Shown here: piece after piece, positions 47,141-61,320 of the stretch
Numbering within the stretch: the first letter of the stretch is position 1
Layout of the letters: the number at the start of each line of letters is the position of its first letter
Sequence record: OZ035799.1
Reading direction: 5' to 3' (one strand)
DNA from: Justusliebigvirus alia
Length of the DNA stretch: 64,000 nucleotides
Notes under the pieces: generated by a model
What the model saw: the letters and a program-made list of their open reading frames with translations, nothing else
Told to the model about the DNA's origin: nothing
Database searches by the model: none
Position numbers and translations under genes: made by a program

Positions 47141-47813
47141 GTTTTTGAGCCTCCTCATAAGAGATAAAAGTTTTACCATTGCGAAGATCCTCCAGTGATT
47201 GTTTATATTGTTCCCAGTTTACACCAATCCCCTGTTCTTTCTCTTCTTTTGACAGATTCGCAAAAGGTAAAGGATTGTCTCCAAACACATCGTCAGGATG
47301 GATAAACGCCATAATTCGAATAGGACATGGTACGCCTTGAATACCTCGGTTCAAACCTGCCAGTGGAACGCGATGAATCCACTCTGCATCTTCATATCCA
47401 TAACCGTGGGTGTATGAGCGGAAATAGCCAGCTTTCTCAATAACTGCACGGGAATACATACCAAACTGGCACATTCCTAGCTCCCAAATAACCACTTCCC
47501 CTTCAATACCTTTTACTTTATCTTTAAAGTATTCAGGCATACCAAAGAAATCCCAACCATTTTCCTTCGCCTGTTTTACAAAATATGTTTCCCAACCTTG
47601 AACAACAGGATAGCAATCATCATCAAAAATAAACCAGTAATCATACCCTTCATCATAAAACTTTTTCATCAGTTCATTACGGGCATATGCAACACCTTTT
47701 CGTTCACGATCATACTGCACAACAAAAGTAGCATTAGGATCAGTCACAAGATAATCTTTAAGAGGACGCTTACCTACAGTAATAACACCAACACCGATTT
47801 TTGTATTTTCCAA
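47127..47813 (-). CDS. Glycosyltransferase-like protein (GT-A fold, DxD motif)
   Basis: FIFDDDCYP acidic motif and GYGYEDAEW; general GT-A-like layout. Weak, motif-only call. Confidence 0.4.
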   Translation of the reverse strand: MENTKIGVGVITVGKRPLKDYLVTDPNATFVVQYDRERKGVAYARNELMKKFYDEGYDYWFIFDDDCYPVVQGWETYFVKQAKENGWDFFGMPEYFKDKVKGIEGEVVIWELGMCQFGMYSRAVIEKAGYFRSYTHGYGYEDAEWIHRVPLAGLNRGIQGVPCPIRIMAFIHPDDVFGDNPLPFANLSKEEKEQGIGVNWEQYKQSLEDLRNGKTFISYEEAQKHGKS

Positions 47814-47822
47814 AATAACTCC

Positions 47823-48386
47823 TTAAATAATTTTATTCATGTCTTGACAATGTAAAAGGTGTGAAACAGCTTTCCTAGGATCATCACTACCTAAACGGTA
47901 TGTGTGAAATAAATATAACCCACGTAATAAACCTAGCCTTTTGTTGTTAGCATGTAATGCTTTAGAGAAAATTATATCAAACTGTATTGACCTTTCCTCA
48001 AAAGGTATTTCATTCCACAGGCTCTTACGAAAGAGAAGAAAGAATCCTGCTAAGATAGCATCTGTAGGTACTTCCTCTATTGAGTTTCCCCATTCTAGAT
48101 GTGCTCTTTTTGCAATCTCAATGTGGTGTAATATATTTGGATCTTCACTTCTTTCATTATTAAATAATTGATATGTTGATCCCAATCTATTACAAGATGC
48201 ACCAAGAACATCAAAATCAGGATTTGAACGGACTATTGATTCCAACCAAGCAGGTTGTTCTGGAAGAAGAAACATTGTATCAATGTCTCTTAGGCAAATC
48301 CAACTATCTTCTGGTAAGACACTTATTGTGTCATTGATACCTTTTCCAATATCTCCAGAAAGATAGGGAGTTATGTGAAATATCAT
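47823..48386 (-). CDS. Putative glycosyltransferase-like protein
   Basis: ICLRDIDTMF (DxD-like). Adjacent to two other glycosyltransferase candidates. Low-confidence motif call. Confidence 0.3.
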   Translation of the reverse strand: MIFHITPYLSGDIGKGINDTISVLPEDSWICLRDIDTMFLLPEQPAWLESIVRSNPDFDVLGASCNRLGSTYQLFNNERSEDPNILHHIEIAKRAHLEWGNSIEEVPTDAILAGFFLLFRKSLWNEIPFEERSIQFDIIFSKALHANNKRLGLLRGLYLFHTYRLGSDDPRKAVSHLLHCQDMNKII

Positions 48387-48443
48387 ACTCCCTCCGTATT
48401 ATTACTTTAGCATTTTTAGACTAAAAAGTCCAAATGGTTTTAC

Positions 48444-48638
48444 CTATTGATTACGTTTTGCGAGTTCCATTTGGATAGCTAAACTGTGATCTCGTGCTTC
48501 CATATACTCTTTATATGTTTCATTAAGATGATCACGACAAACATCACGCAGTTTAATCAGTTTATCTGTAGGGATACCACTAAGATCATCCCAAGATTTT
48601 ACAACTTCACCAGTATCATTGATCCCAATGGTTTTCAT
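48444..48638 (-). CDS. Hypothetical small protein
   Basis: 64 aa ORF in a run of tightly packed small genes. Confidence 0.3.
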   Translation of the reverse strand: MKTIGINDTGEVVKSWDDLSGIPTDKLIKLRDVCRDHLNETYKEYMEARDHSLAIQMELAKRNQ

Positions 48639-48846
48639 CTACAACCTCCTTAATTGCTACAGCACAGTTTTTGCAGATACACTGCCCTTTACCTTTAGAA
48701 ATCTGGATGTAAGGTTCATTTTCATTTTCGCCCTTACGTGAGTCATATATTACAGAATTGAAGCACACAACGCAAATATTTTTTAAGATTGTATACTTAT
48801 CAACTTTCTTTTTTGTTTTAAAGTTAACTTCAATAACATCAGCCAT
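48616..48846 (-). CDS. Zinc-ribbon small protein
   Basis: Two CxxC pairs (CVVCF ... CICKNC). Start probably the internal ATG at 48846, coupled to the upstream stop. Confidence 0.35.
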   Translation of the reverse strand: MADVIEVNFKTKKKVDKYTILKNICVVCFNSVIYDSRKGENENEPYIQISKGKGQCICKNCAVAIKEVVDENHWDQ

Positions 48847-49124
48847 CAGTGTAACACTCCCAGTATGTTGCTTTGTGACATAACCATAGAACATTCAACA
48901 TTATCGTGACTACGTGAAAAACGTTCCCAAACATCTTCATCGACTCGTAAAGCTATACAAGGATAGACGTTATCATTGATCATTTCAATTGAATAAACAT
49001 CTATATTGTCTTCGTCTTCGATGAACATCATTGCAAACTGTTCTAAATGTTTCCTAATGTAATGTACATCCTCTTCTGTAAGACCAATAACAAGATAACT
49101 TGCAACGATAACGCCATCTTTCAT
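48846..49124 (-). CDS. Hypothetical small protein
   Basis: 92 aa ORF. Confidence 0.3.
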   Translation of the reverse strand: MKDGVIVASYLVIGLTEEDVHYIRKHLEQFAMMFIEDEDNIDVYSIEMINDNVYPCIALRVDEDVWERFSRSHDNVECSMVMSQSNILGVLH

Positions 49125-49134
49125 CTATATCTCC

Positions 49135-49644
49135 TTAGCGATAGAATTGATGTTCTTTGTAGCGGTACACTAGAACCATATCTTTTTCCCAGTGTGCTCT
49201 TATTGTAGATTTTTTAAAGTATAATGCTCCTTTTGTAATATCTAATGCAATTCGTAATTCTGGAAAATGCGTATCGAGATAAAGTAGACGTTCTGCTATA
49301 GCCTTAGCTTCCTTCCACTTATCACGTTCCATAACGTTGAATGTCTTTGTGTAAGAGAATTGTCCTTTTTGAAACAAAACTTCTTTTATAGTATCAGGGA
49401 AATATGAATCTCTAGCCCTATTTAATACTACATTACCAACAGCAGACATACCGCGCTTTCCTTGATTACGACTTTCTGCATAGATTGCACAAGCTAATAG
49501 ATTTTCTTTACTATCACGCTTTGTACACTTGTGAACTACTTTAGCAGTTTTTACGTTTGCAGCTTCGGCTTGCGCCACAACAGGTGTAAATGTAAAAGCA
49601 GTTAAGGATAGTAACGCAATTGCGACAAAGGTTTTTATTGACAA
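49135..49644 (-). CDS. Secreted cell-wall hydrolase (SleB/CwlJ Hydrolase_2-like), putative endolysin
   Basis: N-terminal signal peptide (IALLSLTAFTFTPVVAQA). Motifs LLACAIYAESRNQG, AVGNVVLNRARDS, FPDTIKEVLFQKGQFS match the SleB-type hydrolase family. TTG start with AGGAGG RBS. Confidence 0.6.
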   Translation of the reverse strand: MSIKTFVAIALLSLTAFTFTPVVAQAEAANVKTAKVVHKCTKRDSKENLLACAIYAESRNQGKRGMSAVGNVVLNRARDSYFPDTIKEVLFQKGQFSYTKTFNVMERDKWKEAKAIAERLLYLDTHFPELRIALDITKGALYFKKSTIRAHWEKDMVLVYRYKEHQFYR

Positions 49645-49675
49645 ACTTGCCTCCTATTTTGTTAAACGAACTTTT

Positions 49676-49704
49676 ATTGTAACACAGAAGAGGCTGTTTT
49701 GCAA
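49676..49704 (-). promoter_or_regulatory. Sigma70-like promoter (minus strand) for the hydrolase gene
   Basis: On the minus strand: TTGCAA - 17 nt - TACAAT, located just after a hairpin and 30 nt upstream of the RBS. Confidence 0.5.
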
Positions 49705-49735
49705 GTGGAGGGGGATAATCCCCTCTTACACCCTG

Positions 49736-50338
49736 TTAGATGTTGTAAACCTTCGTATGAGTTACTACACCATCTTCTACAAAATCAATACGTTCTTGAT
49801 CCGTAACTAGTGCAGACAATACTTTAAATTTAATTGTTACACGTTCAAAAGCTGGTTGACCATCTTTAAGATAATTATGTTCAGTTGTTACTGTCTTGTT
49901 TACAAAATCAACTTTTGCTTTACCGTTTTCACGCAAGTGGAATGTTTTTCCTGCTTTATACACAATTTCAACATTACCTTCGAGAGTAATTCCTTCGAAA
50001 AGTTCACCCTCTTCTTCATTTTCTTCACTTTTGAACAGACGACGAAACTCTTCCATATCAAGATAAACAACATCTTCAGAATAACTATCAGTAAGGTATG
50101 TCTTACCATCCATTAACCCGAAATATTGCCAGATCGCAGAATAAACATCACTAGTTGATCCAAGGGTATCTCTGAGTTTAGTTCCACGGATTACTTCATA
50201 AACTTCAAAATTGAAACCAGACTGCAAAGCATTAAACAGTACATCACTAACTTCTAAAGCATAATCTTCATTGTTGTCAATATCCACAAGAAAATTGCCG
50301 CTACGAATAAGTTTTTGACCTTCTAAAGTAATACTCAT
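49736..50338 (-). CDS. Hypothetical protein
   Basis: 200 aa ORF with AAGAGGAG RBS, downstream of TerD. Confidence 0.45.
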   Translation of the reverse strand: MSITLEGQKLIRSGNFLVDIDNNEDYALEVSDVLFNALQSGFNFEVYEVIRGTKLRDTLGSTSDVYSAIWQYFGLMDGKTYLTDSYSEDVVYLDMEEFRRLFKSEENEEEGELFEGITLEGNVEIVYKAGKTFHLRENGKAKVDFVNKTVTTEHNYLKDGQPAFERVTIKFKVLSALVTDQERIDFVEDGVVTHTKVYNI

Positions 50339-50349
50339 TGTTTTCTCCT

Positions 50350-50383
50350 CTTCTATTTAAAATATGCGCCCCGAAGGGCGCTA
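50350..50383 (-). terminator. Hairpin terminator after TerD (minus strand)
   Basis: GCGCCC-TTCG-GGGCGC followed by an A/T-rich tail. Confidence 0.45.
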
Positions 50384-50390
50384 TGATTTA

Positions 50391-50987
50391 TTACTCGAAC
50401 CAATCGTCGCCAGCGCCAAACGCTTTAACTACATCATAAATGTCAAGTCCAGCTTTACCTACACCATATGCTTTCAGTTTCCATTCGTTATCTTCCCGCA
50501 CCAGGGAGGCAACGTGGCAAATGGTATTACCTGCAAGTTCTGGAGCCAAGAAGTCAAAGTCCAGCAGTTCAACGTTACGTTCATCATCGAAGATTTTAAG
50601 GAAACCTTCGGTAGCGTGACCAAGGCGTTTCTTACCCGTTTCGTCATCAATAGTAATTACGAATGCAATTTCCTGTGCTTCAGCAGAGATATTATCCAGT
50701 GTAACATCAATCTGCTCCATTTGCCCTACACCGTCACGAACATCTTCACCTGCAAAAGTAGAACGTTCAGGATCAAATTTCTGTGCGTAGCATACCAAGT
50801 GGCGAGGAGACAACAGTTCCGGCAGACCAGATGCATTGTGTCGGCAAATCAGAGCACTAACATCCAGATCCAGTTTTTCGTTAGATTTCCAAGAGAATTC
50901 CAGACGAATGCGTTTCAGTGCTGGTGCAATCTTTTTCAGAGAAACTTTTTCGCTAGAACCTTTTTTCAGGGAAATTTTCTGAGTCAT
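50391..50987 (-). CDS. terD: TerD-family stress protein (tellurite resistance TerD/TerE/TerZ-like)
   Basis: Matches TerD across its length when compared by eye with E. coli TerD as recalled: ISLKKGSSEKVSLKK, LDLDVSALIC, Ca-site-like FAGEDVRDGVG, IAFVITIDD, and C-terminal NEWKLKAYGVGKAGL. Confidence 0.85.
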   Translation of the reverse strand: MTQKISLKKGSSEKVSLKKIAPALKRIRLEFSWKSNEKLDLDVSALICRHNASGLPELLSPRHLVCYAQKFDPERSTFAGEDVRDGVGQMEQIDVTLDNISAEAQEIAFVITIDDETGKKRLGHATEGFLKIFDDERNVELLDFDFLAPELAGNTICHVASLVREDNEWKLKAYGVGKAGLDIYDVVKAFGAGDDWFE

Positions 50988-51059
50988 AATTTATTATCTC
51001 CTTTGTTGTTAATTTACGTTGTCTATTTTACTAATCTTTTCTACAAAGTCAAGCGTTTT

Positions 51060-51854
51060 TTACGCTTTTGCTCCAAATTTTTTAACCCACTCGCCAAACT
51101 CTTCAGATAGCAGTTTATCGTAAAGTTCTTCGTCAGACAAGGACAAATCTGCAATACCGATAAAATCAACATTATCGTATTCTTTTGCCAAGTCTTTCAG
51201 GAATTTAAAGTTTGCATTACCTACACCAACCATAAACCAGTAAACAGGAGTGTTGCGGTGTTTGTTCAGCAAACTACGTACTGCTGAAGTATCCATGTTC
51301 TCCCCGTCAGTTTGGAAGAAAATCATTGCAGGAGTACGATCAACTTGTGCATCAGTATCTACAACCTGTTCTACAACAGTACGTGTAACTTCTACACGTT
51401 CTTTTTTACCAGTTAGTTTAGCAAGGAAACCCTTAGCCGGAACTTCTTCATATTCAACGACTTCGCGTGTAATATTTTTCGTAGGTACACTACCGAAGTA
51501 TGTACCATAGATCTCTTGCATTACTGGAGCATAAGCTGTACCACCATTGATGCAAACATTAGACATGCAAGAGCCGACATAATCATCATATACATCAGCC
51601 GTTGCAGGAGGCAGTTCAAAAGAAGAACTATTGAAAGCCCACATGTCAATCTGTGCATTATCATCAAACTTCATACCAAACGGCAGCAGCTTACCTACAA
51701 AATCACTAACAGTGCCATCACGATACAGCTCACACATACTCCCCGAAATATCTAAGGCGCTACCGACACGAAGAACAACATCGTTAATCTTTTTCTTACG
51801 CAGAGATACAGTAAGAGTTTCTTGACGTTTTTTAAGACTGATTTTATTGGACAT
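51060..51854 (-). CDS. von Willebrand factor A domain protein (TerY-like)
   Basis: MIDAS motif DISGSM near the N-terminus, downstream Thr/Asp ligand candidates; adjacent to TerD. Confidence 0.65.
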   Translation of the reverse strand: MSNKISLKKRQETLTVSLRKKKINDVVLRVGSALDISGSMCELYRDGTVSDFVGKLLPFGMKFDDNAQIDMWAFNSSSFELPPATADVYDDYVGSCMSNVCINGGTAYAPVMQEIYGTYFGSVPTKNITREVVEYEEVPAKGFLAKLTGKKERVEVTRTVVEQVVDTDAQVDRTPAMIFFQTDGENMDTSAVRSLLNKHRNTPVYWFMVGVGNANFKFLKDLAKEYDNVDFIGIADLSLSDEELYDKLLSEEFGEWVKKFGAKA

Positions 51855-51855
51855 A

Positions 51856-52125
51856 TTATTTCTCCTTTCTGAGTGTAATGTTAGTAACTTCTAAATCCAC
51901 TTCTACCATTTCTGTATCATATGAAATACAGCTAAGTTGACCTCTTTGTGAACCGTTCAGACACATTGCTTGGTTTGTATTAACCTTAATAAACACTAAG
52001 TTTCTGAACGTATCTAAACCAGAATCTTGATAGGCAACATAATATACAAATGTATCACCTACGTCAAGTTCTCCAAAACATTTAGGTTCATCTGATTTGT
52101 CGTCTTTGATATTAAATTTAAGCAC
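51856..52125 (-). CDS. Hypothetical protein
   Basis: 89 aa ORF, coupled to neighbours. Confidence 0.35.
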   Translation of the reverse strand: MLKFNIKDDKSDEPKCFGELDVGDTFVYYVAYQDSGLDTFRNLVFIKVNTNQAMCLNGSQRGQLSCISYDTEMVEVDLEVTNITLRKEK

Positions 52126-52681
52126 TATCTCCTCCTTTACCTACTTTCCAACCTAAATAGAAAGCCTCTCTAGTGATTTTTTGCAACTCGTTTAAAGAGA
52201 TAGTTACAACTAAATCATCTTCAATTTCTAGCTTTGAGTCTTCTTCTGTCTCAATGCAAGTATTATGCACTTTGTGGTAAGGATTGTCAACACGTTTAAA
52301 TTTATTATTTTCAGTGCTGAAGAAGCAATCTGGATCTTCTTCCCCATCACCCCAACCCTGGTTAGGATCTTCTTCAGATCTTTCTGTTGGGATCTCGCCT
52401 GTAAAGTGCTCTTCTAATACCAGAGCAATCCCATCTCCAAGATCGGAAGAGAACATCAAATTACAAACTTCTTCCCAAGGCATAGACCACTTAAATCTTT
52501 TACGATTGCCATGTTTATCTTCTTCGTTAGAGAAAACACTACCATAACTATCATAATTCCCATACATCTCTTCGACAACCTTACCACCTTTCAAAAGAAA
52601 TAGGTAGCAAGGAGAGCCATCGAAAGAGGTAGAAAGAGCAGCATTACCAGACTCTTTGCACAAGAAACTAAAACACCCCAT
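52118..52681 (-). CDS. Hypothetical acidic protein
   Basis: 187 aa. C-terminal motif SLNELQKITREAFYLGWKVGKG is repeated in the next small ORF. Confidence 0.4.
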   Translation of the reverse strand: MGCFSFLCKESGNAALSTSFDGSPCYLFLLKGGKVVEEMYGNYDSYGSVFSNEEDKHGNRKRFKWSMPWEEVCNLMFSSDLGDGIALVLEEHFTGEIPTERSEEDPNQGWGDGEEDPDCFFSTENNKFKRVDNPYHKVHNTCIETEEDSKLEIEDDLVVTISLNELQKITREAFYLGWKVGKGGDSA

Positions 52682-52881
52682 TATACACCAGCCTTAAGAT
52701 CAATTAAGGCCAAAGTTGTTTCAGAGTGTGTTTGCTCGTCTACAGGTGCAGTCATATGATAATACAAAAAATCTTCGGCATCATACCAATCTGATTCTTG
52801 ACCTTGTTTCCAACCATCAATGAAAGCATCTTCCATAATGGTTTGCAATTCTTCACGAGTTAAGTGAATATCTTTACTCAT
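52681..52881 (-). CDS. Hypothetical small protein (paralogous motif)
   Basis: LTREELQTIMEDAFIDGWKQGQ repeats the motif at the C-terminus of the 52118 ORF. Confidence 0.3.
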   Translation of the reverse strand: MSKDIHLTREELQTIMEDAFIDGWKQGQESDWYDAEDFLYYHMTAPVDEQTHSETTLALIDLKAGV

Positions 52882-53087
52882 TACACATTCTCCTCTTTTA
52901 CCAATTCCATCGTTGAATTGTCAAAACCATCTTTAGAAGAATAGGTATAGACAGAACGTAGTTCTCGCAGGACAGTGAATACATTAGGATCATCTAACCA
53001 AGTATCCTGGAGGAGAACATAACGATCTTCATTGTCATACTGAACAGCAATCATAGAACCAGACAGTTTGTAAATTTTAATATTCAT
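52881..53087 (-). CDS. Hypothetical small protein
   Basis: Small ORF coupled to the TelA-like gene; start uncertain. Confidence 0.3.
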   Translation of the reverse strand: MNIKIYKLSGSMIAVQYDNEDRYVLLQDTWLDDPNVFTVLRELRSVYTYSSKDGFDNSTMELVKEENV

Positions 53088-53100
53088 AATATATTTCTCC

Positions 53101-54204
53101 TTAAAGTAGACCACGTTTAACAGTTTGAATCATACCATCTTCAAGAGATTGCACTTCTTGAATGTAATCAATACGAGCAGCACGGGCTTCAGTGTTGATT
53201 CGGTTAGTTTCTTCCAACATTTTAACTAAGTTTTCTTGATCACGACGCAATGTTTCAATATCCAATACTTGACGATTAGCAAGTTGTGTAGCTTCAATTT
53301 GGTTTTGTGCAGCCAGATCACTACCCATTGCAATAGCAGCATTAAATTCATTCAGTACATTGTTCTGCGTATCGGCTGCTTTCTTCTGGCGTAGACTTTC
53401 AATATACATAGAAAAGTTTGCAGAGTAAGCAGGAATAACATTATTCACAATATTACGGGCTGATCGCATCAAACTTGCAGATACTTTCTGCATACTTTGT
53501 ACACGTGGCCCCATCTGAACACACAGTAAGCGTAAGGCTTTCAGGTCTGCAATACGAATTTCAAGCAGATCCATAGTATCACGAGTACGTTGACGCTCTT
53601 CTACCTCATTTTCAGGTAGTGTATTAAGGCGAATTTCTTCTTTTTCATAAGTAGCTGTTAGAAGCTCTATATCCCTGTTTAAGCTAAGAGCATATTTTGC
53701 AATAGCTTCTTCTAAACGTTGCAGATATCGTAAAGAATCTTCTTCTTTTTTCAAGTCTGTTTGGAGTGTCTTTACCAAACCTTCAATACGGTTATTGATG
53801 GTGTCAAATTCTCCAAACAAATCTTCTTTCATACCTAAAACTTTCTTAACTAGTTTACCTAAACCTTTAGATTGTTTAATAGAGTTAGGATCAAGTTGCT
53901 TTGCTTGCTTAATAAGTGCAGTTAAACGTTCACTCATTTCATCTCCCTGAGATGAACGCTGGTGTTTAAGCACTTCAGCATTAAGGTTACGAAGAGTAAG
54001 TCCTGCATCAGCACCAACCTGTTCAATCTCTTCACGAGACATTGGAGGCAGCATTTGTACAGGTCGTGCAACAGCAGGGGCATATACAGGGCTTGCATCC
54101 ATAGCACTTGGAGCAAACAAAGACTTACTTTTTTCTGTTGTTGCCGTGAATACACTCATTTCAGACGGTTTGCTTTTTACGGCACTGATAAAAGGACTGG
54201 ACAT
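53101..54204 (-). CDS. TelA-like (toxic anion resistance family) coiled-coil protein, putative
   Basis: 367 aa with a disordered N-terminus and long coiled-coil body. Size and architecture fit TelA/KlaA proteins and the Ter gene context. No strict motif was verified. Confidence 0.4.
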   Translation of the reverse strand: MSSPFISAVKSKPSEMSVFTATTEKSKSLFAPSAMDASPVYAPAVARPVQMLPPMSREEIEQVGADAGLTLRNLNAEVLKHQRSSQGDEMSERLTALIKQAKQLDPNSIKQSKGLGKLVKKVLGMKEDLFGEFDTINNRIEGLVKTLQTDLKKEEDSLRYLQRLEEAIAKYALSLNRDIELLTATYEKEEIRLNTLPENEVEERQRTRDTMDLLEIRIADLKALRLLCVQMGPRVQSMQKVSASLMRSARNIVNNVIPAYSANFSMYIESLRQKKAADTQNNVLNEFNAAIAMGSDLAAQNQIEATQLANRQVLDIETLRRDQENLVKMLEETNRINTEARAARIDYIQEVQSLEDGMIQTVKRGLL

Positions 54205-54272
54205 TCAATTTCCTCCATATTCTTTAGTAGATGGTGATACCTCTGTACCACCATCATAACACAAATTAAGTA

Positions 54273-55124
54273 TTAAACAAACATATCTAAATAATTTGTA
54301 GTAATAAATGCTCCATCTGCTTCCAGATTAACATAACCAGTAGCATTAGTGGTTAAGAAATCCAGATCGAAGGACTCTTTAACACCCCGTACCTCAATAC
54401 GAGAGATATCGAATACAGGTAGTGTAACAGCCTCTTCGTGCAATACCGTACCTTTGTATGTTGCCTTAATGATAAACTTGATATTACCCGTTCCAGCATC
54501 ATACAAAACACTTTCAAACCCTTTGAGAGTATACTTATCACCAGAAGTGAAGTGCAAAGTTGCTTTGTTTACAGTACGTTTCTTACGAGGAGTTCCTTTC
54601 ACACGTTTATGATCACTACGTTTTTTGTACTTAGGAATGAATACAAACGATACATTCTGAAGAAAGGTATCAACATCCAGGATTTTAATATCCTCTGTTG
54701 CAGCAAATTTTGAAGTCGTTGCATCAAAATGCTTTTCCCTGCGATCATACATAAAGATATCAAACCGATCTTCTAAATCAAACAAATTATGTATTTTAAT
54801 TTCAGAATGCTTGCGCATTGCAGCAACCTTGAACTCTTCAAAACGTGGGTGTTCTACAAGTTCTTCAAGTTTTACACCAAAGACAGTATATTGTTTCGAA
54901 GTTTTTTCTGGCGTTGGCATTACAGAAGCATAATCACCGATTGCGCTTTTAAAGCAAAATTGTTCTTGACCTGTATTTTTACCAACGAATTTACAGTATT
55001 CGTCATCGTGCATACTTTCTTTGGTAGTACCAACAAACTCAAAACCATCTTTATTCTTCTCAAGAATTTCTTGATTAAAGATCCAACCTTCCAGGCGATA
55101 CACTTTACCAACTTCTAGTTTCAT
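54273..55124 (-). CDS. Hypothetical protein
   Basis: 283 aa ORF with AAGGAG RBS in the Ter island. Confidence 0.45.
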   Translation of the reverse strand: MKLEVGKVYRLEGWIFNQEILEKNKDGFEFVGTTKESMHDDEYCKFVGKNTGQEQFCFKSAIGDYASVMPTPEKTSKQYTVFGVKLEELVEHPRFEEFKVAAMRKHSEIKIHNLFDLEDRFDIFMYDRREKHFDATTSKFAATEDIKILDVDTFLQNVSFVFIPKYKKRSDHKRVKGTPRKKRTVNKATLHFTSGDKYTLKGFESVLYDAGTGNIKFIIKATYKGTVLHEEAVTLPVFDISRIEVRGVKESFDLDFLTTNATGYVNLEADGAFITTNYLDMFV

Positions 55125-55159
55125 CTGTTTCTCCTTCTTATTTAATCTGTATTAAATTA

Positions 55160-55750
55160 TTAACGACGACGTGAGCTACTAAAACTACGTTTCGACGAAG
55201 AATAACTTTTCGAAGACTTACTATAAGAGCTAATAGGGCTTGAGTAAGACTTACGAGCAGAGTAATCACTATTCACTTTTGTTGTTGACGGGCGTGAATA
55301 CGTTTGTACACTTTGCTGCTTAATTGTGTTTTGTTTAGTGGTTGTATATGTATTTCCTTGTTTATCATAAAAACTATGCTTTTGTGTTGTATATGCTTTA
55401 CTGTTAGTTGTAGGAGCAGCGTTGTTATTAATAATTGTTGTGCTGCTACCACCATCTCTATAACCGCCACCGCCACTATTACCACTCAACATATGACCAA
55501 GAAGCATACCTGTAGCAAACTCACCTACGCCAGAAGAACCACTGCCGCCTCCTTGCACAACAACTGTTGAAGGTTGTGCAGGTGCTGCTTGAACAACTTG
55601 AGGTGCAGGCTGATTTACATATTGTTCATCTACCATCTGATTTGGTGTTTGTTGGTAACGTTGATTTTGTACATTTTCAGAATCATCACAACCTACCAGC
55701 AATGCACTACCTAATACAACTGCAACAATAAAAGATTTAATGTTTTTCAT
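55160..55750 (-). CDS. Lipoprotein with Gly-rich and Ser/Tyr/Thr-rich low-complexity regions
   Basis: Signal peptide plus lipobox (VVLGSALLVGC). Start moved to the ATG at 55750 (RBS GAGAGG). Gln/Pro-rich linker, GGGSGSSG, then S/Y/K repeats. Confidence 0.5.
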   Translation of the reverse strand: MKNIKSFIVAVVLGSALLVGCDDSENVQNQRYQQTPNQMVDEQYVNQPAPQVVQAAPAQPSTVVVQGGGSGSSGVGEFATGMLLGHMLSGNSGGGGYRDGGSSTTIINNNAAPTTNSKAYTTQKHSFYDKQGNTYTTTKQNTIKQQSVQTYSRPSTTKVNSDYSARKSYSSPISSYSKSSKSYSSSKRSFSSSRRR

Positions 55751-55943
55751 TTGTAACCCTCTCATTTAAAGTCTCAACACAATTTTTAAAATCCCTAGAG
55801 AAACAATACATCTGTTCTCCGTTCCTGTTGATAGTAATTGTATGGTTATCAATATATGTTGTCAAGATAAAAATCAAACAAAACAACCCTAGAGCAAAAC
55901 AAATATTTTCAAACAGAATCCAAAGAACACGTAAAACCACCAT
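55737..55943 (-). CDS. Small membrane protein
   Basis: Single hydrophobic helix LWILFENICFALGLFCLIFIL. Confidence 0.3.
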   Translation of the reverse strand: MVVLRVLWILFENICFALGLFCLIFILTTYIDNHTITINRNGEQMYCFSRDFKNCVETLNERVTNEKH

Positions 55944-55956
55944 CAGATCACCTCAA

Positions 55957-55978
55957 CAAAGCCCCCGAAGGGGCTTAA
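55957..55978 (-). terminator. Hairpin after TerC (minus strand)
   Basis: AAGCCCC-TTCG-GGGGCTT; weak U tail. Confidence 0.4.
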
Positions 55979-55982
55979 TGAA

Positions 55983-56960
55983 TTAAGCAACAGTCTGGTC
56001 TTCTTTTTCAGGGAAGATTAAACTTGCAATAACACCCAGCCCAAGAGTACCTAACACAATATACATACTGATCGTCGGATCAATGTGTGCTGGCAGGAAA
56101 CTCACTTTTGCGTGCAGAGTTTCTGCAAACGGGTGATACATCAGTTTTACACCCACAAATACCAGGACTACGATAACTGCTTTCTCCAGATGAACCAAAT
56201 ACTTCAGTGCAACACTAAGAACAAAGAACAGAGCACGTAAACCTAAGATTGCACAGAGCATCGAAGAGAACACCAGCAGAGGTTCTTGTGTCACCGCAAT
56301 TACTGCTGGAACAGAGTCTACTGCAAAGATTACGTCAACCATTTCCATTACAAACACACAAACCAGAGCCGGAGTTGCTACACGAACACCATTTTTGATT
56401 GTGAAGAACTTCTCACCATCCATCTGATCAGATACAGGGAACAGCTTACGAACAATGCGAGTAGCCCAGTGTTTAGAGTAATCAACTTCTGCATCATTAT
56501 CCCCAGCGAATACCATTTTAGCCGCACAGAAAAGGATGACAGCACCGAAGAAGATATTAACATACCAGCCCAAACTCAACAAGTAAGTGCCTACTGCTAC
56601 AAACACACCTCGGAAGACAATCGCACCTGCAATACCCCAAAGTAGAATTTTGTGCTGCAAGTGTGTGCTTTTAATACCAAAACTTGCGAAGACTGCCACA
56701 AATACTACTAAGTTATCTACAGAAAGAGATTTCTCCAACACATACCCACTCAAGAACAAGCTCGCAAAATCAGCACCGTGTTGGAAGTATACAAAACCAT
56801 AGTAGGCTAATGATACCCCAATCCAGAAAATTGACCAGCCAATTGCAGATTTAAATGAAATTTCTTTGTTTTCTCTGTGTCCAAAGAAGTCAATACAAAT
56901 CGACAAGACTAAAATACCCACTAAAACAACCACATCAATAATTGGGAAACCCAGTTGCAT
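55983..56960 (-). CDS. terC: TerC-family integral membrane protein
   Basis: Multi-pass membrane protein with the TerC signature YVLEKSLSVDNLVVF and a second-half repeat VDVIFAVDSVPAVIAV. Confidence 0.8.
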   Translation of the reverse strand: MQLGFPIIDVVVLVGILVLSICIDFFGHRENKEISFKSAIGWSIFWIGVSLAYYGFVYFQHGADFASLFLSGYVLEKSLSVDNLVVFVAVFASFGIKSTHLQHKILLWGIAGAIVFRGVFVAVGTYLLSLGWYVNIFFGAVILFCAAKMVFAGDNDAEVDYSKHWATRIVRKLFPVSDQMDGEKFFTIKNGVRVATPALVCVFVMEMVDVIFAVDSVPAVIAVTQEPLLVFSSMLCAILGLRALFFVLSVALKYLVHLEKAVIVVLVFVGVKLMYHPFAETLHAKVSFLPAHIDPTISMYIVLGTLGLGVIASLIFPEKEDQTVA

Positions 56961-57037
56961 TCTTTTCTCCTCTTTAATGCGGAGGACAATCCTCCGCTCT
57001 ATGTCTTATACTATAAACTGTTTTTAAAGAAAGTCAA

Positions 57038-57286
57038 CTAGTTCAGTTCTGTAATTTTAAGTTTATCTTCTTTGTTAATGATAGGGAAAGCTACAGCATC
57101 ACCTACGTCATCAATAAAGCAAATAGCAAGACCACCTTCCACTTTGCTAATCTGACCATTAAAGGCGTGATACGGGGCAGGAACTTGATCTCCATCTTCA
57201 AGGAGAATAGCCTCGTAAACCTTGCCGATAGTACAATCACGAGTGTTTCTAAATTTTTCAAGCACTTCAACATTTACTTTACGCAT
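57038..57286 (-). CDS. Hypothetical protein
   Basis: 82 aa ORF; hairpin GCGGAGG-N5-CCTCCGC at 56979-56997 lies between it and the TerC RBS. Confidence 0.35.
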   Translation of the reverse strand: MRKVNVEVLEKFRNTRDCTIGKVYEAILLEDGDQVPAPYHAFNGQISKVEGGLAICFIDDVGDAVAFPIINKEDKLKITELN

Positions 57287-57300
57287 ATAAAAATCCTCTC

Positions 57301-57507
57301 TTATTTGTTAGATTGAAAGATACCACGAAGTACCGCAAGAATGAACGTCACACAGACTACACTCCAAAACGTTACAGGAACATGATGCCAGTCTAAGCCG
57401 ATAATGTCAATCATATAATTGTATGCTAAAAGCAGTAGCCAACTAGGGATTAACACAATCAAGAACACAACAATAAAACAACCTAATACTGCTAAAACAC
57501 CTGCCAT
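57301..57507 (-). CDS. Small two-TM membrane protein
   Basis: Hydrophobic segments VLAVLGCFIVVFLIVLIPSWLLLL and VTFWSVVCVTFILAVL. Confidence 0.35.
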   Translation of the reverse strand: MAGVLAVLGCFIVVFLIVLIPSWLLLLAYNYMIDIIGLDWHHVPVTFWSVVCVTFILAVLRGIFQSNK

Positions 57508-57516
57508 ACTTTCTCC

Positions 57517-58233
57517 TTATTTCAGTTTGTAAACAATTACATTTAAACCTTTGTTTACTAGAGTTTCTTCGATCATAAGTTTTACAATATTCCAAGAACC
57601 TCCAGCCAAACCACAACCAAGCATTGGTAAACCTACAATTTTACCGCCTGAAGATACAACATCGTCTCCCATACTATCTAACGCATTATAGATAGCTTCA
57701 TAATTCAGGTCACGCTTGCCTTCCTCACGACGACTATAACCATATTGTCCATATAAATTATAAATTGTCAAATTGTTTTCTGTATACTTGGTAAACGTAC
57801 CTAATTTTTTATAATCACCACGTTTAGTGGCACAATCTGCTTTAAACGCACCAGGCCACTTGCTTTTAATTTTTGGTGCAATACCACTACCCATAGTGCA
57901 AAAACAGTTACAGCAGTGTGCTATAGCGTCTATATCGCCTCTCTCGGCTGCTGCTAAAAGATCACCGTATACCTCAATGATACCTGCTGGATAACTTGTT
58001 ACAATTTCATCTTCCCAGTACATTTTCTCTACACCACCGATCAGTGCAAAGTTTTGTGTAATGCGATCATCAATATAGTTAAGACCTGAAACATACACAG
58101 CGTATTCATCCTGTGCTGTAATACCTTGCACACGAATTCTTAAGACACCATCTTTATCTGTTGCTACACGCCCAAAATCTTTTTCTGTAATATTGGTGAT
58201 AGGATCTCCGAAAGTCATTACTTTATTAGACAT
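57517..58233 (-). CDS. Macro-domain protein (putative ADP-ribose / ADP-ribose-derivative binding or processing)
   Basis: Compared by eye with MacroD-type proteins: GDLLAAAERGDIDAIAHCCNC (DAIVNAAN-like), MGSGIAPKI (GGGV..AI-like), KIVGLPMLGCGLAGGS (IAFP.ISTGIYG-like). ATG overlaps the PRTase stop (ATGTCTAA). Confidence 0.5.
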   Translation of the reverse strand: MSNKVMTFGDPITNITEKDFGRVATDKDGVLRIRVQGITAQDEYAVYVSGLNYIDDRITQNFALIGGVEKMYWEDEIVTSYPAGIIEVYGDLLAAAERGDIDAIAHCCNCFCTMGSGIAPKIKSKWPGAFKADCATKRGDYKKLGTFTKYTENNLTIYNLYGQYGYSRREEGKRDLNYEAIYNALDSMGDDVVSSGGKIVGLPMLGCGLAGGSWNIVKLMIEETLVNKGLNVIVYKLK

Positions 58234-59083
58234 AATAATCCCCTTTAACATTAGATTTGTTGATAATGTTGCTTTCAAAAAATTGACGTAGGAAATCAAA
58301 GTTCTCTTTATATTTTTCAATGTTATTGTAGCCTTCTGCAAGGCAACCAAAGAACAGTTGTTCTACATAATACAAAGGAAGTTGTGAAAGTGCAATTTTA
58401 AAATCAACTTCGCTTTGACTCATTAGATACTTAATAGGACGAACCAAACATTTAGCATCAGTTTCTTGCTTAATCATTTTAATAAAAGCTGCCAGGTTAT
58501 TGATATAGTTGAAGTTAAGTGCAGCTTCGGTATTGGCTTCTGTACCTTCATACTTTGCAAAGTACAGGAAAAACGTATCGTTTTCAACACCTTCTTTGTC
58601 TAAAATTTCAATAAGTTTTTCTTCGTGCGTTCCTGTAATATTAACATCATCAATGAAAATCAGAGTTTTATTACCCCAGAAATCACGATTGATAGAGAAA
58701 GTGTCACCATCGATCAAAGCCTTACGATCTTCTTTGCTAAGAAATCCATAATCATTGATATAGCTCACTTTACGATGAACGATATCCCACTCCACTGGTT
58801 TACCACCTTTGATAGAGATTAGGTAGTTGAGGTGGTCTACAAAATGTTCAGATAACACTGTAGCTGCATTTTTCACATAGTTATATGGAGATGGAATAAC
58901 AACAAAACTTTCATTTACCAGTCGTTCTTCATACTTAGAAAAGAAACTTTCAGCCAGAATGCGCCCCATTCTTTTTGCTGCCTGGTTACTACCAAACTTT
59001 AGTTTGGAATAATCTGCAATGTTAAATTTTGCTTCCTTCAGGTTAGTAAAAGTATTAGCAAAATGTTGAATTTGATTACGCAT
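58226..59083 (-). CDS. Phosphoribosyltransferase-like protein (type I PRTase fold) with C-terminal helical extension
   Basis: PRPP-binding loop motif KTLIFIDDVNITGTHEE (hydrophobic-DD-xxTG-T). Start overlaps the stop of the upstream HAD gene. Confidence 0.55.
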   Translation of the reverse strand: MRNQIQHFANTFTNLKEAKFNIADYSKLKFGSNQAAKRMGRILAESFFSKYEERLVNESFVVIPSPYNYVKNAATVLSEHFVDHLNYLISIKGGKPVEWDIVHRKVSYINDYGFLSKEDRKALIDGDTFSINRDFWGNKTLIFIDDVNITGTHEEKLIEILDKEGVENDTFFLYFAKYEGTEANTEAALNFNYINNLAAFIKMIKQETDAKCLVRPIKYLMSQSEVDFKIALSQLPLYYVEQLFFGCLAEGYNNIEKYKENFDFLRQFFESNIINKSNVKGDYYV

Positions 59084-59732
59084 TAATAAGTTCCTCTTTT
59101 TTAAGTTTAGCCAACAAGTCTTCTGGATTAATAATATGACAGAACTTCATCCCTATGTCAACAGCTTTTCCATCATAGATCAAACTATCTCCAACGTGTA
59201 AGATCTCCTCTGGTGCGAGATCAAACGTTACCATTTCATCAAAAGAGAGTTTAAAAAACCTAGGATCTGGTTTACACAAGCAAAACTCATCAGAAAAATG
59301 CATAAAGTCAAATGGTAATTTTGTCAAGCCAGAATATACAGCTAAGAAACTACCAGGTACAAAATTGGTATTGCTCTTAATACTCAAAGAATAGGTTGAA
59401 CTTAGCTCTTCCAACTTCTTGCAAAGTTCAGGGTTTAATGTTGGAGGATGTTTTATAAACATTGCTAAACAGTCTCTTTTTAACCCATCTACTTTATCAA
59501 GATCAATGTTCAAACGAGCAGAAAGTGTTTCCCAAGCATTTCTAGATGTTCCACAAATGCCTTTTTCTGCTTTTAAATCCAGGAGAGTTTTTACCTCTTT
59601 ATATACGGTAGCTGCTTCTACCTCAGAACAAGAGGCATACTCGGCAATAACCTTGTTGCGTTCTTCTGCATACAAAGGATTAGCAGTAATAAGAGTATTC
59701 CATACATCAAAAGAAATATGCTTAACAGTCAT
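59076..59732 (-). CDS. HAD-superfamily hydrolase (phosphatase/dehalogenase-like)
   Basis: Motif I-like HISFDVWNTLI (DxxxTL) and motif IV HVGDSLIYDGKA. Start moved to the ATG at 59732 (RBS GGAGGA). Confidence 0.55.
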   Translation of the reverse strand: MTVKHISFDVWNTLITANPLYAEERNKVIAEYASCSEVEAATVYKEVKTLLDLKAEKGICGTSRNAWETLSARLNIDLDKVDGLKRDCLAMFIKHPPTLNPELCKKLEELSSTYSLSIKSNTNFVPGSFLAVYSGLTKLPFDFMHFSDEFCLCKPDPRFFKLSFDEMVTFDLAPEEILHVGDSLIYDGKAVDIGMKFCHIINPEDLLAKLKKEELINA

Positions 59733-59901
59733 TTTTAATCCTCCGTCCAAAAGAATATCATCTGCTTAATTTTATTGATCTCTTGATGTAGTAACTTTCC
59801 AGCATGTGATTGATCTTTAATATTGACAGCAAGAATTTCAAGCTCCGTCAGTTTTTCTTGGATAGCTTTATATTCATCATCTGTAAGCATTTTCTTCCCC
59901 T

Positions 59902-60093
59902 TTAGAATGGTAATCTTTGTATGTCACTTATCCCCACACCAAGAAGTCTAGCAATATCCTTATCTAAAAGCAACTCTTTTTGTTCTAAAATGTTAATCAG
60001 ATCTCCTAATACTTCTTTAATGTCACGATCATTTTTAGCAACGTGACCACCTGCCGTATCAACTTTATCTTTAAAAACAAAGTAATGATCCAT
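59902..60093 (-). CDS. Hypothetical small protein
   Basis: Short ORF after the AAA+ ATPase terminator; start likely at the internal ATG with GGAGGG RBS. Confidence 0.3.
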   Translation of the reverse strand: MDHYFVFKDKVDTAGGHVAKNDRDIKEVLGDLINILEQKELLLDKDIARLLGVGISDIQRLPF

Positions 60094-60099
60094 AATACC

Positions 60100-60133
60100 C
60101 TCCATATAAATAAAGGAGGCTTTCGCCTCCTTT
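60100..60133 (-). terminator. Rho-independent terminator after the AAA+ ATPase gene (minus strand)
   Basis: AAAGGAGGC-GAAA-GCCTCCTTT followed by ATTTATAT. Confidence 0.55.
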
Positions 60134-60139
60134 TATCAC

Positions 60140-61300: not shown

Positions 61301-61320
61301 AGTTTTCTCCTCTGTTTAAT

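Follow-up and report, generated by a model that had tools for sequence, protein, structure and literature searches.

A recurrent four-gene Ter module in phages

The locus described here represents, in Stephanstirmvirinae, a module of four Ter genes (TerC, TelA, a TerF-type vWA protein, and TerD) that recurs in phages. It lies in a 64,000-nucleotide stretch of sequence record OZ035799.1 (the window), which sequence comparison shows to match OZ035770.1 (Justusliebigvirus alia) at 100% identity. The phage is a virulent, phi92-like myovirus of E. coli. With DNA polymerase and primase/helicase genes to one side and NrdD/NrdG to the other, the phage setting proposed in the initial annotation is confirmed. 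The interval 50391-56960 extends exactly from the start codon of TerC to the stop codon of TerD and is apparently one minus-strand transcription unit, which a host-type promoter opens and a terminator closes. The four Ter genes occupy 6.6 kb in all, because seven other ORFs are interleaved among them. The features of the operon and its upstream flank are as follows.

59076..59732, minus strand: HAD-IA hydrolase with an atypical motif I, FDVWNT (Pfam/NCBIfam scans)
58226..59083, minus strand: PRTase_3, ComF-like phosphoribosyltransferase (PF15610, E 1.5e-41)
57517..58233, minus strand: TARG1/DarG-class macro domain protein with an 80-aa N-terminal extension
57301..57507, minus strand: gp184-like small ORF with two TM segments, in the gap separating the macro domain gene from the TerC promoter
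57038..57286, minus strand: gp183-like small ORF, in the same gap
57010..57037, minus strand: sigma70-like promoter TTGACT-16-TATAGT, directly after the gp183 stop codon and upstream of TerC
56979..56997, minus strand: stem-loop GCGGAGGA-TTG-TCCTCCGC, about 6 nt downstream of the predicted transcript start and followed by a GAGGAG ribosome-binding site
55983..56960, minus strand: TerC, Alx-type, predicted integral membrane divalent-cation exporter, 325 aa, about 9 TM segments (PF03741, E 1.2e-38)
55737..55943, minus strand: gp181-like 68-aa protein with a single TM segment (ORF and TM prediction)
55160..55750, minus strand: gp180-like lipoprotein with signal peptide and lipobox LVGC
54273..55124, minus strand: gp179-like ORFan, 283 aa, lineage-specific cargo (homologue clusters)
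53101..54204, minus strand: TelA, 367 aa, predicted soluble and all-helical (PF05816, E 7.9e-34)
52881..53087, minus strand: gp177-like small ORF, 68 aa
52681..52881, minus strand: gp176-like small ORF, 66 aa, N terminus resembling the gp175 C terminus
52118..52681, minus strand: gp175-like protein, 187 aa
51856..52125, minus strand: gp174-like small ORF, 89 aa, with an ORF of similar length at the same position in phAPEC8
51060..51854, minus strand: vWA-TerF-like protein, 264 aa, MIDAS motif intact (PF10138, E 1.6e-38)
51025..51052, minus strand: second sigma70-like site, TTGACT-16-TAAAAT, within the 72-nt gap before TerD
50391..50987, minus strand: TerD, 198 aa, calcium loop shortened and partly de-acidified (PF02342, E 4e-28)
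50366..50381, minus strand: terminator-like hairpin GCGCCC-TTCG-GGGCGC followed by ATATTTT, 9 nt past the TerD stop codon

Just downstream of the operon, at 49135-49644, a secreted cell wall hydrolase with a signal peptide is encoded.

Ter genes of phi92-type phages are already annotated and discussed in print and are not new: GenBank labels exist on phi92 gp172, gp178, and gp182, their orthologues go by the names stress protein, toxic anion resistance protein, and TerC, papers of 2021-2024 report phage Ter modules, and one paper remarks on "alx-like ter cluster genes" in such phages, "function unknown." The genes studied here are the same as phi92 gp172, gp173, gp178, and gp182 and their orthologues, with 98-100% identity in Justusliebigvirus and, for TerC, TelA, and TerD at the amino acid level, 71-81% in Phapecoctavirus. 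Phapecoctavirus phages differ in having other cargo between TerC and TelA, such as a SprT-like peptidase.

Beyond these relatives, TerC, TelA, TerF-type vWA, and TerD are also found together in Caulobacter jumbo phages and Acinetobacter phage ME3 (PMC7824862) and in PhiPsa374-like Otagovirus phages (PMC9796965). Whereas seven ORFs separate the Ter genes here, the four are contiguous in the described phage modules, including those of Otagovirus, as they are in a 340 kb metagenomic contig (order TerC-TelA-vWA-TerD) and another phage-like contig (TelA-vWA-TerC-TerD). Two metagenomic modules carry a DUF475-type TerC in place of the Alx type, with 19-21% identity to the TerC described here. The differing gene order and the use of another TerC subfamily in two clusters argue for selection on the set. 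Compared with phage Paula, pN/pS is about 0.07 across the operon and 0.03-0.06 for the four Ter genes, indicating strong purifying selection.

Protein families and comparison with bacterial ter clusters

All four Ter proteins, encoded by minus-strand ORFs, score above the Pfam gathering thresholds of their families; 22 ORFs between 47.1 and 61.3 kb were scanned. Profile confirmation of each family, the check suggested in the initial annotation, bears out its TerD, TerC, and TelA-like calls and its MIDAS-containing vWA protein, although the last passes as TerF-type and not, as labeled there, TerY-like.

TerC also exceeds the NCBIfam TerC/Alx subfamily cutoff (TIGR03718; 322.8 bits versus 246.4) and is 35% identical to E. 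coli Alx. The five acidic residues on which Mn2+ export by Alx depends have aligned counterparts in E76, D82, E206, D209, and D215, so that TerC, as judged by alignment, retains every residue needed for this activity. Plasmid-borne TerC/Alx-family proteins, some annotated "tellurium resistance protein TerC," are 47-49% identical to the phage protein. The TelA match is near full length, spanning 13-330 of 332 profile positions, and the protein is 78.5% identical to its phAPEC8 counterpart. No TM segment is predicted in TelA, and a low-confidence single-sequence AlphaFold2 model (pLDDT 59) is all-helical with three long helices.

In the vWA protein, D35-x-S37-G38-S39 (DxSGS) and, in the TDG motif, D183 do not vary across the family, and the Thr of GGT, replaced in some relatives, is kept. 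PF10138 includes TerD-vWA fusion proteins. A TerY identity is rejected: the protein is TerF-type, and none of the four Ter proteins matches PADLOC defence models, including those for the TerY-P system. That system (TerY vWA, kinase, and PP2C phosphatase) likewise has a vWA protein with a "Ter" name; in contrast, no kinase or phosphatase gene lies near the phage gene.

TerD scores 98.6 bits against a cutoff of 25.3, matches PDB 2kxt (E 8e-15), and is 80.8% identical to the phAPEC8 protein. Its calcium loop is degenerate by alignment, with GEDVRDGVG----QMEQ in place of the consensus GDNRTGxGxGDDEQ and several acidic ligands lost, and is more degraded than in other aligned phage TerDs.

The proposal that these genes reproduce the core of bacterial ter operons holds in part. 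TerD, TerC, TelA, and vWA are present, but there is just one TerD, with none of TerZ, TerA, or TerE, and no TerB is detectable in the 64 kb window. The bacterial and plasmid terZABCDEF clusters (IncHI2 R478, pTE53, and Klebsiella) share with the phage the TerC family, at 47-49% identity, and the TerD fold family; they differ in that the phage has TelA and a TerF-type vWA protein in place of TerB and the TerZ, TerA, and TerE paralogs. In Paenibacillus, the vWA homologue is flanked by the biosynthetic genes ATP-grasp_Ter, C-C lyase, PRTase_2/TRSP, and StiP, whereas ATP-grasp_Ter, C-C lyase, PRTase_2, and StiP are absent among the 22 scanned ORFs. Closer to the phage set than terZABCDEF is the Bacillus subtilis yceCDEFGH stress operon, an envelope-stress operon that carries TelA (YceH) alongside a TerC protein and TerD paralogs; it differs in having three such paralogs and YceG, and no known TerF-type vWA protein. 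The TerD gene is labeled "yceD" in some phage records.

Interleaved genes, transcription signals, and the upstream block

By sequence comparison, the seven interleaved ORFs are lineage-specific cargo or, in the case of gp175, occur elsewhere without Ter linkage: the N-terminal 140 aa of the gp175-like protein are a widespread, unannotated phage domain. For the gp179-like ORF, only two homologue clusters, both Justusliebigvirus-like, are found in 5.8 billion proteins, and there is no Pfam match. The lipoprotein and small membrane proteins noted in the initial annotation are recovered as the gp180-like ORF and as the ORFs with one (55737-55943) and two (57301-57507) TM segments. The gp180-like protein, which has no match in Pfam or NCBIfam and is not found at the corresponding position in phAPEC8, has Asp at +2 and +3 after the lipobox, suggesting retention at the inner membrane, followed by a Gly-rich region and a Ser/Thr/Lys-rich tail.

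Because promoter-like sites show no enrichment as a class relative to shuffled sequence (45 found versus 39.7 expected), the TerC promoter call rests on consensus, position, and conservation. A host-type promoter is annotated at the equivalent position in phAPEC8, where a hairpin of different sequence also occupies the position of the stem-loop. As the sigma70-like promoter and 5' hairpin keep their position in phAPEC8, and the promoter there is annotated as host dependent, the Ter operon is probably early and transcribed by host RNA polymerase. No Rfam riboswitch was found at the stem-loop, and neither a Mn riboswitch nor another metal-responsive element was found upstream of TerC.

The PRTase_3/HAD/macro domain block lies directly upstream of the operon. 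PRTase_3 may be associated with the Ter genes. PRTase and HAD genes are also reported in phage ME3, and NAD/ADP-ribose genes lie beside Ter modules in three other phage lineages (NAMPT and PRPP synthetase; NMNAT-NUDIX and NAMPT; PARP-WGR). The HAD-PRTase_3 pair is present in Rhizobium phages without Ter genes, and macro domain homologues occur in phages without them (phAPEC8 annotation note).

A possible role in superinfection exclusion

By analogy with bacterial systems, we tentatively favor the reading that the operon is a superinfection-exclusion and membrane-protection device acting through an ion-homeostasis complex, and not a tellurite resistance determinant. Transcribed early by host RNA polymerase, the operon would supply four proteins that assemble around TerC at the cytoplasmic face of the inner membrane: TerC as an Alx-type inner-membrane divalent-cation exporter, TelA as a soluble long-helix protein, the TerF-type vWA protein with its intact MIDAS metal site, and TerD as a beta-sandwich sensor with a degraded calcium loop. 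This complex would keep ions balanced and the membrane intact in the infected cell, making the cell refractory to membrane-breaching insults, above all DNA injection by competitor phages and pore-forming colicins. More loosely linked, the PRTase_3/HAD/macro enzymes may synthesize or trim a ribosylated small molecule that serves the complex as ligand. The envelope/ion-homeostasis and superinfection or defence roles raised in the initial annotation agree with the 2021 hypothesis of Iyer et al. (PMC7824862), in which the Ter genes of a phage serve to ward off superinfecting phages.

Superinfection exclusion is consistent with the family matches, the five Alx acidic residues, the intact MIDAS, the low pN/pS, the recurrence of the set, the positional conservation of promoter and hairpin in phAPEC8, and the absence of the operon from complete E. 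coli genomes. By analogy, it is also consistent with the bacterial ter cluster, which loses phage inhibition and colicin resistance when terC, terD, or terZ is disrupted by insertion, and with Klebsiella, in which terC deletion lowers resistance to phage, Zn, and Mn. Against it stand the modest Klebsiella terC phage effect, chiefly a change in plaque size, the lost TerD acidic ligands, the lack of PADLOC matches, and the unenriched promoter-like sites; as TerB and TerE-type paralogs are absent, the bacterial phenotypes may not transfer to the phage set.

Less likely, though with an appreciable share of the probability, the operon manages metals for the phage: TerC would export Mn2+ (or Zn2+/Ca2+), either keeping metal in the cytoplasm at levels that suit phage enzymes or supplying metal to exported phage proteins, while TerD, vWA, and TelA would be metal-sensing regulators. 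Passage of the Alx cutoff with all five export residues fits this reading, as do the metal-binding MIDAS and TerD modules, the Zn and Mn resistance given by Klebsiella TerC, the induction of that ter operon by Zn and Mn, and the signal-peptide hydrolase just downstream. Bacillus TerC proteins load Mn2+ onto exoenzymes, a further point in its favor. However, Alx and MntP are already in the host, no metal-responsive element was found upstream, the TerD calcium loop is degraded, and metal management leaves unexplained why TelA, vWA, and TerD always accompany TerC in phages. We regard counter-defence as improbable; here the complex would shield the cell from membrane-depolarizing or -permeabilizing abortive-infection effectors, or TerD would sequester a nucleotide-like immune signal while the macro, PRTase, and HAD proteins degrade or remake ADP-ribose- or NAD-derived molecules. 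Dictyostelium TerD relatives bind cAMP, and both the adjoining DarG/TARG1-class macro domain, PRTase, and HAD genes and the NAD/ADP-ribose genes of the three other lineages point the same way, yet adjacency may reflect merely a shared auxiliary-gene region, the upstream genes occur in phages without Ter genes, and TerDs of this type have no known ligand.

That the operon is literal resistance cargo, letting a host in a carrier state or pseudolysogeny withstand tellurite or xenobiotics, is very improbable, despite the "tellurite resistance" labels in GenBank and the mention of xenobiotic resistance in pseudolysogeny as a secondary possibility by Iyer et al. (PMC7824862). [quoted passage not shown] Moreover, the operon occurs in 0 of 5,426 complete E. 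coli genomes and is thus carried by virulent phage only. There is scarcely any likelihood that the genes are hitchhikers without function, captured from a bacterium long ago and now decaying. The degenerate calcium loop and the unrelated ORFs inserted between the Ter genes would suit such decay, but it is contradicted by the selection data, by retained catalytic and metal-binding residues, by reading frames intact and conserved across two genera, and by recurrence of the set in unrelated phage lineages.

Ter genes and their operon frame

Four Ter genes, encoding TerC, TelA, a vWA protein and TerD (phi92 orthologues gp182, gp178, gp173 and gp172), occupy the minus strand between 50391 and 56960, within a long minus-strand block seen in the GC skew. 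When the families were checked with HMMs, all four proteins scored well above the Pfam gathering thresholds. The genes and the predicted signals that frame them are as follows.

57037-57010, minus strand: sigma70-like promoter, TTGACT-16-TATAGT, directly after the stop codon of the preceding ORF
About 6 nt past the predicted start, minus strand: leader stem-loop GCGGAGGA-TTG-TCCTCCGC, then a GAGGAG ribosome-binding site and the TerC start codon
55983-56960, minus strand: TerC, Pfam E 1.2e-38
53101-54204, minus strand: TelA, PF05816 E 7.9e-34, nearly the full-length profile (positions 13-330 of 332)
51060-51854, minus strand: TerF-like vWA protein, PF10138 E 1.6e-38
72-nt gap before TerD, minus strand: second promoter-like site
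50391-50987, minus strand: TerD, PF02342 E 4e-28
9 nt past the TerD stop codon, minus strand: terminator-like GC-rich hairpin, then ATATTTT

As a promoter-like site lies upstream of TerC and a terminator-like hairpin follows TerD, the interval constitutes one apparent transcription unit. Taken as a class, promoter-like sites show no enrichment over shuffled sequence (45 found versus 39.7 expected), and the promoters are therefore assigned by position and conservation. The genes from TelA through vWA overlap or abut, which suggests translational coupling. The TerC leader is ~45 nt long with a simple hairpin, and at the equivalent spot the Phapecoctavirus phage phAPEC8 is annotated with a host-dependent promoter and has a hairpin whose sequence differs; what the two phages share is the arrangement rather than the sequence. 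The leader differs from that of alx, whose yybP-ykoY Mn2+-responsive riboswitch is a feature of regulation rather than of the protein. Control of TerC by an alx-type riboswitch was rejected, as no riboswitch or other Rfam family matched at E<=1 in 48000-62000.

The 6.57-kb interval is 100% identical, at the same coordinates, in another Justusliebigvirus alia record (OZ035770.1) and 98 to 99% identical in ~50 phi92-like E. coli phages, with Phapecoctavirus relatives lower. The initial annotation placed the genes in a replication/auxiliary block. This description is right, because in the annotation of the near-identical phage Paula the Ter region is flanked by a DNA polymerase and a T7-like primase/helicase on one side and by NrdG/NrdD on the other.

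TerC belongs to the TerC/Alx subfamily, passing the NCBIfam cutoff (TIGR03718, 322.8 bits versus 246.4), and is 35% identical to E. coli Alx. Mutagenesis has established that Mn2+ export by Alx needs five acidic residues, E86, D92, E213, D216 and D222. These intramembrane positions align with E76, D82, E206, D209 and D215 of the phage protein, and the five columns are invariant across all TerC proteins aligned. Plasmid-borne TerC/Alx-family proteins, some of them annotated "tellurium resistance protein TerC," are 47 to 49% identical to the phage TerC over 98 to 99% of its length.

The vWA protein had been described as TerY-like with a MIDAS. The MIDAS is intact, with D35-x-S37-G38-S39 and D183 of the TDG motif invariant across the family, and the Thr of the GGT motif, replaced in some relatives, is present. 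The TerY label does not stand: the family is the TerF-type PF10138, the protein has no PADLOC match, and its relatives include TerD-vWA fusions with an N-terminal TerD domain, the TerF architecture. No solved relative of the vWA protein or of TerC was found by sequence. TelA, described as a TelA-like coiled-coil protein, has no transmembrane segment and is predicted to be soluble; a single-sequence AlphaFold2 model is all-helical at low confidence (pLDDT 59). A fold could not be assigned to TelA, as no solved relative was found by sequence and that model is too poor for a fold search.

Along its whole length (residues 5-180), TerD can be aligned with 2kxt and 3ibz, two structures solved for TerD proteins. 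Pan et al. 2011 reportedly defined the acidic calcium-binding loop of TerD by the motif GDN(R/L)TG(E/A)GDGDDE, which the phage protein lacks. Its loop, GEDVRDGVG----QMEQ against the consensus GDNRTGxGxGDDEQ, has a 4-residue deletion and D-to-V, D-to-Q and D-to-M changes; more of the loop is kept in the other phage TerD proteins aligned. Since the DxD motif (D40, D42), D82 and E91 are retained, the phage TerD may have residual metal binding.

Relation to other Ter clusters

The initial annotation saw in these genes the core of bacterial ter operons. What it observed is borne out in every particular, and its interpretation is partly supported. TerC is indeed homologous to plasmid TerC of the terZABCDEF operon, whereas that operon has several TerD paralogs (TerZ, A, D, E, and F) and the window has one TerD, the TerD profile matching exactly one ORF in the 64 kb. 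TerB, reported to be essential for tellurite resistance, was not detected: the 20 Pfam-scanned ORFs gave no PF05099 match, and phmmer with Paenibacillus TerB, a single-sequence probe of limited sensitivity, gave 0 matches in any ORF of the 64-kb window. Within the same 64 kb, and with that limit on the TerB probe, no additional TerD or vWA protein and no TerB turned up.

The nearest bacterial relative of the vWA protein lies in a full Ter locus of Paenibacillus pini, ordered vWA, TerB, four TerD, TerC, C-C lyase, PRTase_2/TRSP, StiP, HAD, and ATP-grasp. The Ter-linked module of Paenibacillus for synthesis of a nucleoside-like metabolite comprises ATP-grasp_Ter, a C-C bond lyase, PRTase_2/TRSP, StiP, and a Cof-type HAD, whereas the phage has only a PRTase_3 and a HAD-IA hydrolase. 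The TerY-P defense system consists of a TerY-type vWA protein, a Ser/Thr kinase, and a PP2C phosphatase; Pfam searches found no kinase or phosphatase domain in the neighboring ORFs. TerY-P or any other cataloged defense system was rejected, with 0 PADLOC matches for the four Ter proteins.

A closer likeness is to a recurrent phage module, in which TerC, TelA, a TerF-type vWA protein, and TerD are encoded on one strand in one cluster. More distant phage-like relatives of the vWA protein have the four-gene set only, contiguous, in Pseudomonas phage phiPsa267 (L004) and in two phage-like metagenomic loci (L007, L008). The order is TelA, small ORF, vWA, TerC, TerD in phiPsa267, TerC-TelA-vWA-TerD on a 340-kb metagenomic contig, and TelA-vWA-TerC-TerD on another phage-like contig. 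Because gene order varies in this way and two of the clusters carry a DUF475-type TerC, only 19 to 21% identical to that of the window, selection appears to act on the four-gene set.

Within the phage the Ter genes are under selection, as judged from sequence differences. Between the operon and its counterpart in Paula there are 72 synonymous and 18 nonsynonymous differences (pN/pS 0.07), with values of 0.03 to 0.06 for the four Ter genes individually. Phapecoctavirus orthologues are 78.5% (TelA), 80.8% (TerD), and 71% (TerC) identical, and vWA homologues that are ~73% identical occur on contigs of 143 to 154 kb. A prophage or carrier state in E. coli was rejected, with no match in 5,426 complete genomes.

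Possible roles of the Ter genes

The phage thus co-encodes an Alx-type TerC, a vWA protein with an intact MIDAS, a predicted helical TelA, and a modified TerD, strongly conserved and behind a predicted host-type promoter. The favored reading, which we hold to fall somewhat short of an even chance, is that they form an early-expressed inner-membrane complex that guards ion balance and the membrane, excluding competing phages and pore-forming colicins. The operon would be expressed early, and the soluble TelA, vWA, and TerD proteins would act with TerC at the inner membrane. Together the four would stabilize ion balance and membrane integrity, and a membrane so stabilized would block both the entry of competing phages and killing by pore-forming colicins. 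Phenotypes of the bacterial genes support such protection and exclusion: insertions in terC, terD, and terZ of a bacterial ter cluster abolish phage inhibition and colicin resistance, and a terC deletion makes Klebsiella less resistant to phage, Zn, and Mn. The proteins could instead manage metals for the phage's own enzymes or exported proteins, which we consider unlikely, or they could protect against host abortive-infection effectors or sequester a signal, which seems rather improbable. Literal tellurite resistance is very improbable; Warring et al. 2022, who report terC, terD, terF, and telA in PhiPsa374, judge tellurium resistance unlikely for that phage (PMC9796965). That the genes are functionless remnants is contradicted by the selection data and is scarcely credible.

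A more elaborate proposal draws in the upstream neighbors, a run of genes without a terminator between the TerC promoter and the following signal.

60133-60112, minus strand: terminator-like hairpin after an AAA ATPase gene

Two small ORFs open the run; a HAD-IA hydrolase, a ComF-like phosphoribosyltransferase of the PRTase_3 family (E 1.5e-41), and a macro domain protein come next, and a further pair of small ORFs closes it. Operon and neighbors might form one ligand-gated exclusion device, in which PRTase_3 and HAD (with Trp for the catalytic Asp+2) would build a ribosylated small molecule, the macro domain would trim it, and TerD, with its degraded calcium site, would sense it and switch the TerC/TelA/vWA complex, closing the cell to phage DNA or to host suicide effectors. 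We regard this as a long shot; if true, it would give Ter systems, through a phage, their first mechanistic explanation. In the scheme of Iyer et al., the signal of Ter systems is made by PRTases and HAD enzymes, which they also report from phage ME3 (PMC7824862). The functional link between the PRTase_3/HAD block and the Ter genes is nevertheless weak, because the phage enzymes belong to other families than those of the Paenibacillus locus, because Caulobacter and Xanthomonas phages have PRTase_3 and TerD separated by tens to hundreds of kilobases, and because 11 Rhizobium phage records contain the HAD-PRTase_3 pair, whereas the organism tallies for the TelA and TerD searches include no Rhizobium.

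The feature itself is already known, and no new kind of system is added. The phi92 GenBank record labels gp172 a putative stress protein, gp178 a stress/toxic anion resistance protein, and gp182 a membrane-bound tellurium resistance protein; no transcript-timing data or experiment on any phage Ter gene was found in the literature searched. The detail added here is the operon frame, the TerF-type identity of the vWA protein, the kept Alx export residues, the degraded TerD calcium loop, and evidence that the interleaved ORFs are not Ter specific. Ter systems are among the oldest unexplained bacterial "resistance" determinants, linked for ~30 years to tellurite, colicin, and phage resistance without a mechanism. 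A minimal version of four genes persists under strong selection in several virulent phages that are unrelated to one another, which suggests that the four Ter proteins constitute a functional core. A convenient test system for that core combines a K-12 host with a phage whose operon is easy to delete, an opportunity already evident from published annotation and comparative work.

Interleaved and neighboring genes

The lipoprotein and small membrane proteins that the initial annotation listed are present.

55160-55750, minus strand: lipoprotein with signal peptide and lipobox LVGC, then Asp-Asp
55737-55943, minus strand: small ORF with one hydrophobic segment
57301-57507, minus strand: small ORF with two hydrophobic segments

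By E. coli Lol sorting, Asp-Asp after the lipobox predicts retention in the inner membrane. Comparative evidence indicates that the interleaved ORFs are not part of the four-gene Ter set, because gp179 is confined to one genus, the cargo of phAPEC8 differs, and gp175 occurs elsewhere without Ter neighbors. As hidden Ter components, gp179 was rejected as an ORFan confined to Justusliebigvirus and gp175 as a member of a large phage family that elsewhere does not adjoin Ter genes. In phAPEC8, different genes, including one for an SprT-like peptidase, lie between TerC and TelA.

The gp175 gene (52118-52681, minus strand) encodes a strongly conserved domain in its N-terminal 140 amino acids (52262-52681) that has no match in Pfam, NCBIfam, or PADLOC; the predicted model, although confident, has no match in PDB or BFVD. 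A word-indexed search found 294 homologues; an exhaustive one gave 230 clusters (50% identity). In nearly all cases the domain begins at residue 1. G2-C3-F4-S5...C8 is invariant, as are other motifs, e.g., Y43-x-S45-Y46-G47 and D105-P106-x-Q108-G109-W110-G111. The majority of homologues stand alone, as proteins of 125 to 150 amino acids on phage-like metagenomic contigs, with DnaB/PolA or kinase/phosphoesterase genes rather than Ter genes as neighbors; among isolated phages the domain is found only in Stephanstirmvirinae. The motif L..EL..I...AF..GWK.G is common to the last ~30 residues of gp175 (52118-52210) and the first ~30 of gp176 (52681-52881, both minus strand; BLASTP E 2e-5), and may be a small duplicated module.

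Upstream, the macro domain protein (57517-58233, minus strand) has its nearest matches in Streptomyces SCO6735, BT1257, and human TARG1 (E ~1e-15 to 1e-10), matches DarG antitoxin models well below their cutoffs, and is extended at the N terminus by 80 residues. One possible role is to undo the ADP-ribosylation that host defenses such as DarT impose. The HAD-IA hydrolase (59076-59732, minus strand) has the motif I FDVWNT, with Trp replacing the second catalytic Asp of the superfamily's phosphatases, and may be something other than an ordinary phosphatase. The stretch HISFDVWNTL recurs unchanged in phAPEC8 and in a HAD of 31% overall identity from a Rhizobium phage. In four phage lineages, NAD or ADP-ribose genes are found no more than a few kilobases from the Ter module: macro domain, PRTase_3, and HAD in the window (57517-59732), NAMPT and PRPP synthetase in Otagovirus (phiPsa267), NMNAT-NUDIX and NAMPT in L008, and PARP-WGR in L007. 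This adjacency may reflect merely a shared auxiliary-gene region.

Farther upstream, an ORF-less group I intron (62780-63055, minus strand; RF00028, full-length model, 72.3 bits versus a gathering score of 50, E 6e-18) splits nrdD into ORFs 63001-63867 and 61788-62759; nrdD of Paula is an uninterrupted 1,800-nt gene. Two genes downstream of the Ter operon terminator, 49135-49644 (minus strand) encodes a SleB-type cell wall hydrolase (PF07486, E 6.5e-20) whose N terminus has a hydrophobic segment resembling a signal peptide; the phAPEC8 annotation calls it an endolysin. Three consecutive ORFs at 46196-48386 (minus strand) are orthologous to phAPEC8 genes annotated as glycosyltransferases, and one (47127-47813) has a subthreshold match to a TET-associated glycosyltransferase (24.1 bits versus a cutoff of 27.5), which may hint at DNA or surface sugar modification. 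Finally, five records named "Campylobacter phage" with Campylobacter jejuni as the stated host (MG065639, MG065645, MG065650, MG065656, and MG065689) are 99% identical to E. coli Justusliebigvirus/Phapecoctavirus in the region and are likely mislabeled or contaminated.
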